Positions 1 to 3,000 of a stretch of DNA of 12,527 nt are shown here, piece by piece. The position numbers were made by a program, and so were the translations under genes. The notes under the pieces were generated by a model that saw only the letters and a list, made by a program, of their open reading frames with translations, had not been told where the DNA came from and did no database searches. Every line of letters begins with the position of its first letter. Positions within the stretch are counted from its first letter, which is position 1. The stretch lies in assembly GCA_964615185.1 (NCBI GenBank), contig CAZTOS010000065.1, positions 1 to 12,527 on the forward strand. Reading direction: 5' to 3'. This DNA comes from an uncultured Thermococci archaeon. Lineage in GTDB: Archaea; Methanobacteriota_B; Thermococci; Thermococcales; Thermococcaceae.

Positions 1-3000
1 ACAACCGGTGCTGCGTGCTTTACTGGAGACACTAGAGTGCTAACCGAAAGGGGTTTCATACCTATTGAAGAACTTGTAAGGTCTGCTCAATCACCAAGGA
101 TAATCTCTCATAAAGGGCCCAAGCAAATCGTAGAGAAATACGATAATGGTGAAATGGAAGTCTTCAGGGTAGTTACACAGGATGGATACGAAGTCAAAGT
201 TACGAAAGAGCATAAGTTCTTGGTCTTTGATAAGGATGGTAATCCTATTCTCAAGCCTCTCATGGAACTCAAAGAGGGAGACTACATTTACGTTCTTACC
301 CCCGAAGATGACTTTGATGCTCCATATTTAAAGCTTAACACAAACGTCGAGCTTAGGAGTAATGGTTACGAAGTAAACTTACCAGAAATCCTCGATGAGA
401 AACTGGCATATCTCCTCGGTATAATATATGCGGATGGGCATATAAGACACTACTGCGAGAATGGAAGAAGGAAAAACTCCAAGATTGAGATATACCTCAA
501 CATTGATGAGGCAAATGTTAAGGAGAAAGTGAAGAGGTATTTCATTGAGCTTTTTGGCTTAGAGCCTAAGGAGTTTGTTCGAGAAAAGCAACACAAAGTA
601 ACACTTATCATACCTTCCACAAAAATTGTAAAGTTCCTCGAACTAAATGGTCTCAGTAAGGACAGGTCCGAGAACATAGCTGTTCCCGAGCTAATCTTTC
701 GTAGCAGGCCAAGTGTCATGGCGGCGTTCTTAGCAGGATTTTTTGATGGGGATGGGACACTTGATCAACATTACAGGATTGCTCTGAAGTCCATTTCAGA
801 ACGTTTCATCAAGGAGGCCCAGCTCCTCTTTATGGCACTTGGAATAATCACAAGCATACAGGAATATAAACCCAAACAAGATAACCACAGAAAAGTATAC
901 ACCCTCAGGATACAGACCAGAGATATGAAAATCAGAGCTTTTGAAAAGCTCGTTGAATCAGTTAAACTTGCAACAATTAGAAGAAGAGCTATAGAAGAAT
1001 TAAAAGAAAATGGTAAAAACAAGAAGTATTCTTTTCCATTCAACGCCATTTACAAAATTAAGAAACCAGAAATTCGGGCCAAAATTCAGAGGGACTATAA
1101 GCTTCTTTCTTATAACTCAAAGGTCACACATAGGGCATTCATAAGAAAAGTACTTGAATTAAAGGATGAGCTCGGTCTTGATGAAGAAGAGGTTAAGTAT
1201 TTCACAATGCTATCAAAGCTCTATCCAGTAAAGATATCTAAAATAGAGCGTCTTGGAGTTCAAAAGGTCTACGATATACAGGTTGAAGGAGTCCACTTAC
1301 TAACAGGCAACGGCATCTACACCTCCAATAGTGGCCCTGTTTCGTTCATGCACCTAATAGATGCCGTTAGCGACGTAATAAAGCAAGGTGGATGTGTAGG
1401 TATTGATTCCTACGTCTATACCGATAAAGGGCTAAAGCAGCTTAGAGAACTTGTTATTAATCCCAAGACGGAGTTCCCAGTTATGGATGCTGTTTATAGT
1501 GACGGGAAGTTTGTTGATGCATATATGGGGCAACTTGGAACTCAAAAAATGTTCAGAATTTGGACTGATCTTGGGAACTATCTCGATGCGACATACAACG
1601 AGCTGGTTCTCACTGCTGATGCTGATGGCTTCAAATGGAAGCGTGCAGAGGAGTTACAAGAGGGGGACATTGTTGTTCTCGTGACTGGGGGATGGAAAGG
1701 GGAAAGGAAGAGACTTCCATCAATAGAGGATCTTAAAATTGGTATTCATCACAACTGCAATGAGGTTACAACTCCCCCCGAGCTTGATGAGAGGCTTGCA
1801 GAGTTCTTGGGTTTCTACGTGGGAGATGGTGTATGGAACAACGGCAGGCTGATACTCTCTATTGGTGATAATGAAAAGGAGCTGGTGGAATACTTCCTCA
1901 AACTTGGTGAAGAGCTCTTTGGACTGAAAGGTCACGTCACTAAGATGGAGAGAAAAGGAAAAGGTAGATACTATCAGATAGTATGGTACTCAAAGCCCTT
2001 AGAAGTGTGGTTTGAGAAGTTGGGCTTCAAGAAAGAGGGCTCCACCAAGGCGAGTATTCCTAAGTTAATACTTCAGTCGGATGAAAAAGTGATAGCGGCG
2101 TTCCTCAGGGGCCTCTTTGAAGCTGATGGTCTTGTCAGGGATGATGGTAGGGTATCACTATCGACAGCATCTCCCGAGCTTGCCAAACAAGTTCAGCTTG
2201 CTCTCTTTGGTTTGGGAATTATAGCAAGAGTCAGGGAGTCCAATTACCCTGGAAGGTACTCCAAGAATCCAATTTATGTCGTTTCGGTTGTGGACAGCTT
2301 AAGCACTGAGATGTTCTACGACAAGATCGGTTTCATAAGGCATAGAGAGAAGCCAAGATTCAAGTATTCAAACAGTAATGTCAGGAAGATACCCTTTGGA
2401 GAAAAACTACTGAAAGATTTGCATGAGAAAATCAAGAAACAGGACAAAAACAGGGCCAAGGACTTCTATAAGAAGCACAGGATTTACTTTGCCAACGGTG
2501 GATCAACAAAGAGGGTAAGTCTCTTTATGCTACGCAGGAACAGCAAGGCTTTCCCTGAACTTGAAAGTCTTGTTAGGGAGTACGAGAGGTATGCATTCGC
2601 AAGGATAACTAAGAAAGAGGTCGTCACCGGAGAGGTGTTCCATCTGGAAGTCCCAGAGACGGAAAGTTATGTTGTCAATGGGATACTCGTCCACAACGTT
2701 AGAAGAGGAGCAAACATGGGTATTTTAGAGGTTTGGCATCCGGACGTTGAGAAGTTCATCCATGCAAAGGAGAAGAACATTGGAACCAATGTCTTGAGCA
2801 ACTTCAACATCAGCGTTGGTCTCTGGGAAGACTTCTGGGAGGCATTGAAAGAAGGTAGAAAATATCCACTAATCAACCCAAGAACCGGAAAGAAAGTTAG
2901 AGAAGTTGATCCCAAGGCACTCTTTGAAGAATTGGCATATATGGCATGGGCAAAAGCTGATCCCGGTGTCGTGTTCTTTGATATAATCAACAAGAGAAAC

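Follow-up and report, generated by a model that had tools for sequence, protein, structure and literature searches.

An intein with Glu at block B, His at block F position 4 and no +1 nucleophile in an archaeal class II ribonucleotide reductase

Introduction

As described in PMC4031507, inteins of classes 1, 2 and 3 all pass through a branched intermediate on the side chain of the first C-extein residue (+1). All three described classes need Cys, Ser or Thr at this place, a demand that is likewise the chief restriction when inteins serve as tools for ligation. In this work we analyse intein 2 of the class II (B12-dependent) ribonucleotide reductase gene of an uncultured Thermococci archaeon (assembly GCA_964615185.1), which is followed by Val and has Glu and His at two positions of the splicing active site, block B position 10 (B10) and block F position 4 (F4). 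Coordinates are positions on the forward strand of the stretch analysed, 12,527 nucleotides of contig CAZTOS010000065.1, hereafter the window. Block names and numbering follow PMC4031507, and class definitions are those given in PMC4031507 and PMC2807308.

The closest described relatives are class 1 inteins with a LAGLIDADG endonuclease, such as TliVMA (7qss), PI-PfuI (1dq3) and, above all, 71 representative inteins with +1 Ser or Thr (for instance P0046 and P0055), which share the insertion site and host gene of intein 2. All have in common with it the Hint fold with a nested endonuclease, Cys1, the B7 Thr and the His-Asn end. Intein 2 differs from them in the missing +1 nucleophile, B10 Glu, F4 His, the loss of the F-block His and a Val/Ile/Leu-type residue where they have Ser/Thr/Cys at the third-last position. 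Type A bacterial intein-like domains (BILs) resemble it in Cys1, the His-Asn end and the absence of a +1 nucleophile. For them the proposed route runs through a thioester and Asn cyclisation to an attack by the amino group so released, although cleavage is the dominant outcome (PMC4031507, PMC7664689), and their aminolysis is the model for the reading favoured below. However, type A BILs are described from hypervariable regions of non-conserved proteins (PMC7765530), whereas intein 2 has an endonuclease, lies in a conserved motif of a housekeeping enzyme, has exact empty alleles and clusters with true inteins.

Unusual residues at B10 or F4 have precedents. The 2014 review knew of two inteins without the B10 His (PMC4031507). 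The loss in the Tko CDC21-1 intein is natural and thought to be offset by another residue, Lys58 outside the motifs, in an intein that has a bulky Leu(-1) (PMC4031507, PMC6333167), whereas intein 2 has Gly(-1), B10 Glu and a candidate replacement at F4. In class 3 an unusual F4 residue also marks a monophyletic subgroup, but those inteins are without an N-terminal nucleophile and keep the +1 residue, whereas intein 2 has Cys1 and neither a +1 nucleophile nor the Trp-Cys-Thr (WCT) triplet. In the Hedgehog Hint domain the D303H (D46H) variant (PDB 6tyy) is an Asp-to-His general-base swap that keeps activity (PMC9163320); it is engineered, D303 is described there as unique to Hedgehog and is not F4, and the block B His is kept. 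Our search of the open literature, with InBase and most subscription papers outside its scope, found no paper describing natural inteins that are followed by Lys, Arg, Val or Ile, or inteins with B10 Glu together with F4 His.

Results

Intein 2 has the following features, where "nucleophile-less" refers to inteins of the same site without a +1 nucleophile and "Glu/His" to the residues at B10 and F4:

1384-1392, + strand: end of the N-extein, Gln-Gly-Gly, with Gly at -1; the Gln equals Q203 of loop 2 in T. maritima NrdJ
1393-2697, + strand: intein 2, 435 residues (C1 to N435), Hint splicing domain with nested LAGLIDADG endonuclease (Pfam PF14890 and PF14528; structure match)
1393-1395, + strand: Cys1 nucleophile, invariant in 48/48 nucleophile-less and 71/71 Ser/Thr inteins of the site
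1465-1467, + strand: Lys25, in all 7 Glu/His inteins and in 0 of the other 41 nucleophile-less ones
1528-1530, + strand: Gly46, invariant in the 7 Glu/His inteins; Ala, Ser or Val in the other 41
1591-1602, + strand: block B T67-Y68-N69-E70 (TYNE), which retains the B7 Thr and has Glu in place of the B10 His (1600-1602)
1795-1830, + strand: first LAGLIDADG motif (VGDG), acidic residue intact
2101-2130, + strand: second LAGLIDADG motif (EADG), acidic residue intact
2641-2643, + strand: His417 (CAT) at F4, a position that is Asp in every one of the 71 Ser/Thr inteins of the site
2662-2664, + strand: Glu424 (GAA) at the F-block His position; the His is lost across the lineage and the Glu itself is unconserved
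2689-2697, + strand: end of block G, Val433-His434-Asn435
2698-2703, + strand: C-extein, +1 Val (GTT, 2698-2700; the host's native residue, no nucleophile) and +2 Arg, equivalent to T. maritima R207

An earlier note on this DNA had read TYNE, the F4 His, the F-block Glu, C1, the His-Asn end and the absence of a +1 nucleophile from the sequence, and all these residues are where it placed them. Block B reads TKEH in intein 1 of the same gene, and F4 is Asp in intein 1 and Thr in intein 3. The register of B10 and F4 is backed by the family alignment with relatives and by a profile alignment to solved inteins, which sets TliVMA block B TPIH on TYNH and PI-PfuI YDLTV on the F4 strand. An AlphaFold model (40-row alignment; predicted local distance difference test score, pLDDT, 86.7) agrees, since it predicts T67-E70 as a turn between two strands and H417 within a strand, matching canonical B7-B10 and F4. 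The closest structures to the model are endonuclease-bearing inteins, with TliVMA 7qss at E 1.6e-28, Z 33.9 and a root-mean-square deviation (rmsd) of 3.4 over 398 aligned residues. Compared with the gp41-1 intein (6riz) the model gives Z 19.8 and rmsd 1.5 over 124 aligned residues, and thus has the Hint fold with blocks A, B, F and G. At E 0.01 the only Pfam hits are PF14890 (over its cut-off), PF14528 and PF05204.

The same note considered sequencing error unlikely, which is borne out by independent data. Locus L141 of a second assembly is identical to the window over 4215 bases. Genome G007 has the same Glu, His, Glu and Val residues in a sequence 87% identical over 487 residues, with synonymous codon differences at saturated silent sites. 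Contigs from four studies, none of them labelled as the source, have no variant at these codons among the variants listed; on contig X6, which spans 1381-2900, all 23 differences were inspected and none falls on these codons. Sequencing error and strain-private decay were therefore rejected on the basis of the second assembly, G007 and the contigs from the four studies.

A profile search puts the junction just before residue 206 of T. maritima NrdJ, with Gln(-3) equal to Q203 and Arg(+2) to R207. We take this site (QGG/VRRGA, the slash marking the junction) to be loop 2 of the reductase, partly on the basis of PMC4728125. That paper reports for the E. coli reductase that Arg298Ala is nearly inactive and that Gln294Ala is without pyrimidine activity. 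A close match to intein 2 was found in only G000 and G007 among 99 genomes of the order, the next best being at 31%. The segment downstream of the junction was found in 90 of the 99 genomes, and 30 of those loci, one of them the window, were inspected: the other 29 Thermococcales loci are all empty at this site and read QGG/VRRGA. Since all 29 empty alleles carry Val, Val is the native host residue at +1, and in this intein 2 agrees with the host allele and differs from its nearest intein relatives, which have Lys. A shifted splice junction was rejected, as only HN/V restores the empty-allele sequence. As a separate observation, the low-depth contigs X3, X6 and X9 join across intein 2 or stop at its edges (window 1391-2705), a sign that these samples also contain alleles lacking the insert, which may belong to other species.

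Intein 2 is an intein by its insertion pattern, an in-frame insert missing from alleles of the same gene, and by its fold, but it falls outside classes 1 to 3. It has the Cys at position 1 (Cys or Ser in class 1), the terminal Asn and the penultimate His of class 1; in place of +1 Cys, Ser or Thr it has Val, as do G007 and the empty alleles, and in place of the block B His, which is near-universal in class 1 and not strictly defining, it has Glu70. In class 2 there is no N-terminal nucleophile and the +1 Cys attacks directly, whereas here Cys1 is present and +1 is Val. Class 3 has WCT with F4 Cys and no Cys1 or Ser1; in intein 2, B12 is Val, F4 His, G5 Val and Cys1 is present. The end HN/V without a +1 nucleophile is that of a type A BIL, but by location and architecture intein 2 is not one, being an endonuclease-bearing element in conserved NrdJ loop 2 and not in a hypervariable region of a non-conserved protein.

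Protein searches together with a genome scan gave at least 143 whole inteins at the loop 2 site, with 8 partial proteins excluded; the genome scan covered at least 80 loci, of which 56 had a whole intein at the site, 3 a partial one and 21 none. After removal of 6 exact duplicates and clustering at 90%, 119 representatives were left. Ser or Thr follows 71 of them, all with B10 His and F4 Asp. The other 48 have no +1 nucleophile (Lys in 32, Arg in 11, Val in 3, Ile in 2), and a single branch splits them from the 71 (Shimodaira-Hasegawa-like approximate likelihood ratio test, SH-aLRT, 99). Their B10/F4 pairs are His/Asp in 32, His/Glu in 6, Glu/Glu in 2, Glu/His in 7 and Gln/Asp in 1. Such variation at F4 (Asp 33, Glu 8, His 7) is confined to this lineage within the site set. 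Cys1, Thr67 (B7), His434 (G6) and Asn435 (G7) are invariant in 48/48. The F-block His is kept in 1/48 as against 51/71 Ser/Thr inteins, and position 433 is Val, Ile or Leu in 48/48 as against Ser, Thr or Cys in 71/71; both differences fall on one split and are not independent evidence. The endonuclease motifs end in DG in 45/48 (first) and 47/48 (second), so that the two acidic motifs of a LAGLIDADG enzyme appear to be retained.

Named hosts of the nucleophile-less inteins include Aenigmatarchaeota, Nanoarchaeota, Micrarchaeota, Heimdallarchaeota, Thermoplasmata, Methanoperedens, Chloroflexota and Acidobacteria; this span of archaea and bacteria points to horizontal spread. The +1 residue changed at least 10 times on the lineage tree, and because its identity changes so often its side chain is unlikely to be used. 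No lineage-specific Cys/Ser/Thr column was found: the columns with at least 70% of these residues are 1, 3, 6, 10, 23, 58, 67 and 415, and columns 3 and 23 are not kept within the Glu/His clade. Among 80 viral loci two inteins lie at the site, both with +1 Ser, and two further protein searches gave one additional member (His/Asp, +1 Lys). Two members deserve separate mention. P0202, a +1 Lys intein in the context RRGAQM, has a very long branch and its place in the lineage is unsure. L032:4064-5356 has a degenerate first endonuclease motif (ISKG) where its 86% identical relative P0005 has ADG, and its endonuclease was possibly inactivated recently.

The swap was traced on a tree of 47 of the 48 (long-branch P0202 left out) with 10 Ser/Thr outgroup rows, from which the block B, block F and 433 columns were dropped. 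Even with these trait columns removed, the seven Glu/His inteins form one clade (support 100/98), with L031 (Glu/Glu) as its sister (100/100). The next group out is a His/Glu trio (99/69), nested in His/Asp rows. If the root lies between the nucleophile-less lineage and the Ser/Thr inteins, the simplest order begins at F4 with Asp to Glu, continues at B10 with His to Glu and ends at F4 with Glu to His, so that this late, single change was apparently stepwise. The seven are 39-86% identical in pairs, 87 of 435 columns (about 20%) are invariant among them, and the Glu/His state has persisted along branches that add up to about 3.4 substitutions per site. The clade-specific invariant residues of the splicing domain are Lys25, Gly46, Glu70, Glu414 and His417; Lys25 is a possible partner of Glu414, and Gly46 may leave the space that His417 takes up. 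Three partial proteins show the same residues over the parts they cover, P0127 at B10 and F4, P0124 at F4 and P0235 at B10. In a metagenome scan of 38 loci the only Glu/His members were L141 (identical to the window) and L142 (the same as P0123).

Both residues are rare elsewhere. Of 486 distinct stretches of block B, 472 have His at B10, 8 have Glu, 3 Gln and 3 Thr, and 7 of the 8 Glu come from this clade. F4 His was found in 8/39 C-termini without a +1 nucleophile and in 0/362 with one; the F-block His is present in only 195 of these 362 ordinary inteins. The B10 His is also lost, with no His at F4, from three other inteins: L055 (Glu/Glu), P0193 (Gln/Asp) and P0243 (Glu/Asp). The first two are short inteins (L055:2274-3410 and P0193; 379 and 384 residues) on long branches, further independent B10 losses. 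P0243 (residues ~1183-1638) lies at another reductase site with +1 Thr. Its block B reads TSNE and its F4 is Asp, the block B His having been lost independently here, next to a canonical junction. A compensating Lys of the Tko CDC21-1 type was not adopted as an explanation: judged by sequence position, a Lys stands 20 residues before B10 in 5/7 clade members but in neither the window nor G007.

These data settle several proposals of the earlier note. It took the substitutions to be something other than random decay, and B10 Glu with F4 His is indeed held in all seven clade members, far from being private to one strain among canonical relatives. Its idea of a reciprocal swap fares worse: the history looks stepwise, as L031 lacks a His at both positions and the rows that follow are His/Glu, and P0243 pairs B10 Glu with F4 Asp. 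The F-block Glu does not belong to the swap either, as this position is Glu in 2 and Gly in 5 of the clade and the shared feature is the lineage-wide loss of the His. Co-evolution with the missing +1 nucleophile, also suggested there, holds in so far as Glu/His occurs only among inteins without it, but 38/48 of these keep the B10 His and 33/48 the F4 Asp. For the same reason (38/48) we rejected the swap as a requirement for losing the nucleophile. The seven share the pair by one origin, that is, one event, so covariation with the missing nucleophile is beyond statistical testing. As for a distinct subclass, Glu/His does mark one subclade, while the missing nucleophile defines a wider and older lineage. 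Judged from the alignments, this lineage is the larger finding, and would predate the swap.

Selection on the window was estimated against G007. In the splicing domain the proportion of nonsynonymous differences (pN) is 0.05 at a proportion of synonymous differences (pS) of 0.83, which is saturated, so that no ratio of the two rates (dN/dS) is given for that domain; in the endonuclease core dN/dS is 0.04. Eight of nine other nucleophile-less pairs lie at 0.04-0.16, one being saturated, and four Ser/Thr pairs at 0.05-0.15 (pairs share rows). Thus the check that the earlier note had proposed points to purifying selection, under which Cys1, the B7 Thr, His-Asn and the endonuclease motifs are kept. 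Selection shows that the splicing domain is kept and does not separate ligation from cleavage. The full-length reductase product P0003 (2370 residues) scores above the cut-offs of NCBIfam PRK08332 and TIGR02504, and P0003 and the seven clade hosts retain the reductase's catalytic motifs intact, as far as the sequences reach. G000 also encodes the class III reductase NrdD. Five other hosts searched have one class II gene each, with NrdD in 1/5; a monomeric-type reductase domain was found in 0/4 of the other hosts searched for it, nor in G007. In G099, the only one labelled as a complete genome (Glu/His intein, +1 Lys), the class II enzyme is the only reductase found.

The rest of the reductase gene in the window is as follows:

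1-4791, + strand: class II (B12-dependent) ribonucleotide reductase gene with three inteins in the window (open reading frame list; 5' end cut by the contig start)
16-1329, + strand: intein 1 (TTGAA/C...TSN/S), canonical B10 His, F4 Asp and +1 Ser; for comparison only
3046-3504, + strand: intein 3, a mini-intein of 153 residues preceding the catalytic Cys (NP/C...RN/CGEE); for comparison only

Intein 1 has Ser in place of the penultimate His (TSN/S), and intein 3 has the odd residues B7 Asp (DEKH), F4 Thr and a penultimate Arg. A fourth intein (GGG/C...HN/TGLN) occupies P0003 residues ~302-758, upstream of the window, which gives four inteins in one reductase. NCBIfam searches identified a phosphoribosyltransferase, an RNA 2',3'-cyclic phosphodiesterase, a CCA-adding enzyme and a KaiC-domain protein in 4917-5932, 7349-8707 and 10942-11661, and an IS6 family transposase at the contig end (11735-12520, +). 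No NCBIfam match was found for a frame of 429 residues at 5929-7218 (-), which has a Walker A motif and lies in a low-GC stretch (33-38%), or for frames of 599 and 144 residues at 8704-10938 (-).

Discussion

We favour, with a probability of about 0.5, the reading that intein 2 matures the reductase by an aminolysis like that of type A BILs, His417 being predicted to take over the acid/base duty of block B. Cys1 would form a thioester with Gly(-1), aided by Thr67, with His417 handling the proton and Glu70 orienting the scissile amide or the His. Asn435, helped by His434, would then cyclise without a branched intermediate and free the alpha-amine of Val+1. Finally, the folded reductase barrel would keep the halves of loop 2 together while this amine, with the F4 residue as its base, attacks the thioester and restores QGG-VRRGA. 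The swap would be a late retuning of this mechanism and not its origin.

Aminolysis with the help of the host fold is favoured because the +1 residue varies freely, no internal nucleophile specific to the lineage was found and a cut would hit the substrate-latching loop. The residues invariant in 48/48 (C1, B7 Thr, G6 His and G7 Asn) fit thioester formation and Asn cyclisation, the steps of type A BIL aminolysis as given in PMC4031507. According to the same review the B10 His and the F4 Asp are both active at the scissile bond on the N-terminal side. For Ssp DnaB the block B His is reported as essential with Gly(-1) (PMC6333167), and therefore compensation by bulk does not apply to intein 2. 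An Asp-to-His general-base swap at another position is tolerated in the engineered Hedgehog domain (PMC9163320). The Glu/His pair is probably functionally coupled.

Several points weigh against this reading. Cleavage at both ends explains every conserved residue equally well, type A BILs are described as yielding mostly cleavage products (PMC4031507, PMC7664689), and one review holds them unable to ligate (PMC7765530). The F-block His, an aid to Asn cyclisation in several inteins, is lost in 47/48. The need for His417 as a replacement is weakened by L031, L055 (both Glu/Glu) and P0193 (Gln/Asp), which have no His at B10 or F4. The support for the His/Glu trio as next sister group is only 99/69, and about 20% of the columns (87/435) are invariant in the seven-member clade anyway. 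Moreover, the class II enzyme need not be essential here, given NrdD in G000, and G099, a very small genome, might get nucleotides otherwise.

Two alternatives carry most weight, each of them in our view less likely than not, and the first is the main rival. In the first, thioester hydrolysis and Asn cyclisation cut both ends without ligation, and the reductase works as two chains nicked in loop 2. This would need exactly the invariant residues C1, T67, H434 and N435 and would be the usual outcome for type A BILs, which mostly cleave (PMC4031507, PMC7664689). The phage Aeh1 reductase, split in two chains, is reported to be fully active; however, its chain is divided between two strands of the barrel, close to the active-site cysteines, and depends on added tails (PMC3045599), whereas a nick here would separate the loop 2 Gln from the substrate-latching Arg. 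In addition, a His/acid pair at B10/F4 is kept in 45/48, more than slow hydrolysis might need.

In the second, which is compatible with aminolysis or cleavage, Glu/His is not a functional swap at all: the B10 His would be dispensable in the lineage, and Glu70 and His417 would be structural or hitch-hiking residues fixed once. The single origin, the B10 losses of L055, P0193 and P0243 without F4 His, the persistence of L031 as Glu/Glu and the equal clade-specificity of Lys25, Gly46 and Glu414 all speak for it. Against it, both residues were held over that long summed branch length, and the two positions are the best known of the catalytic ones; moreover, none of the 362 C-termini with a nucleophile has F4 His.

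It is improbable that the F4 side chain acts as an internal acyl carrier, taking the N-extein from Cys1 as a His acyl-imidazole or a Glu/Asp anhydride before attack by the +1 amine. F4 is indeed the branch point in class 3 inteins (F4 Cys; PMC4031507), and within the site set it varies only in the nucleophile-less lineage. However, three chemically different residues would have to serve, and no precedent was found in the open literature. Moreover, a Cys1 thioester is already reactive toward amines by itself.

That intein 2 is dead or in decay, in a gene made dispensable by the class III reductase, seems very improbable: NrdD in G000 and three deviations from the textbook active site would fit it, but the frame is open, the endonuclease motifs are intact, purifying selection is strong, the seven hosts checked all have intact catalytic motifs as far as their sequences reach, and no other reductase was found in G099. 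A nucleophilic +1 side chain, or an edited +1 codon, can be practically dismissed, for although 32/48 have Lys and Tetrahymena BIL2 is reported to form a Lys isopeptide (PMC8616854), this is impossible for the 16/48 with Arg, Val or Ile and was rejected for intein 2 by the Val codon in two genomes, and no single kind of base change would edit all four codon types to Ser, Thr or Cys.

A natural lineage with Lys, Arg, Val or Ile at +1 implies either an undescribed splicing route or a nicked working reductase, and both would surprise specialists. With Val at the junction, the lysine side chain drops out entirely as an explanation, and close relatives supply exact empty alleles as controls. Together with its natural His/Asp, His/Glu and Glu/Glu relatives, the Glu/His pair forms a ready series on the roles of the block B His and the F4 acid. 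We tentatively raise, at somewhat less than even odds, a fourth mechanistic class: natural mobile inteins across archaea and bacteria that splice efficiently without a +1 nucleophile by host-fold-assisted aminolysis, in which this clade, with the catalytic His moved from block B to F4, would be the first case in nature of a His and an acid trading positions within an intein's active site. If true, elements of this kind would ligate in front of Val, Ile, Arg or Lys, and freedom from the +1 nucleophile would let them home into Lys, Arg, Val or Ile alleles that are closed to ordinary inteins.

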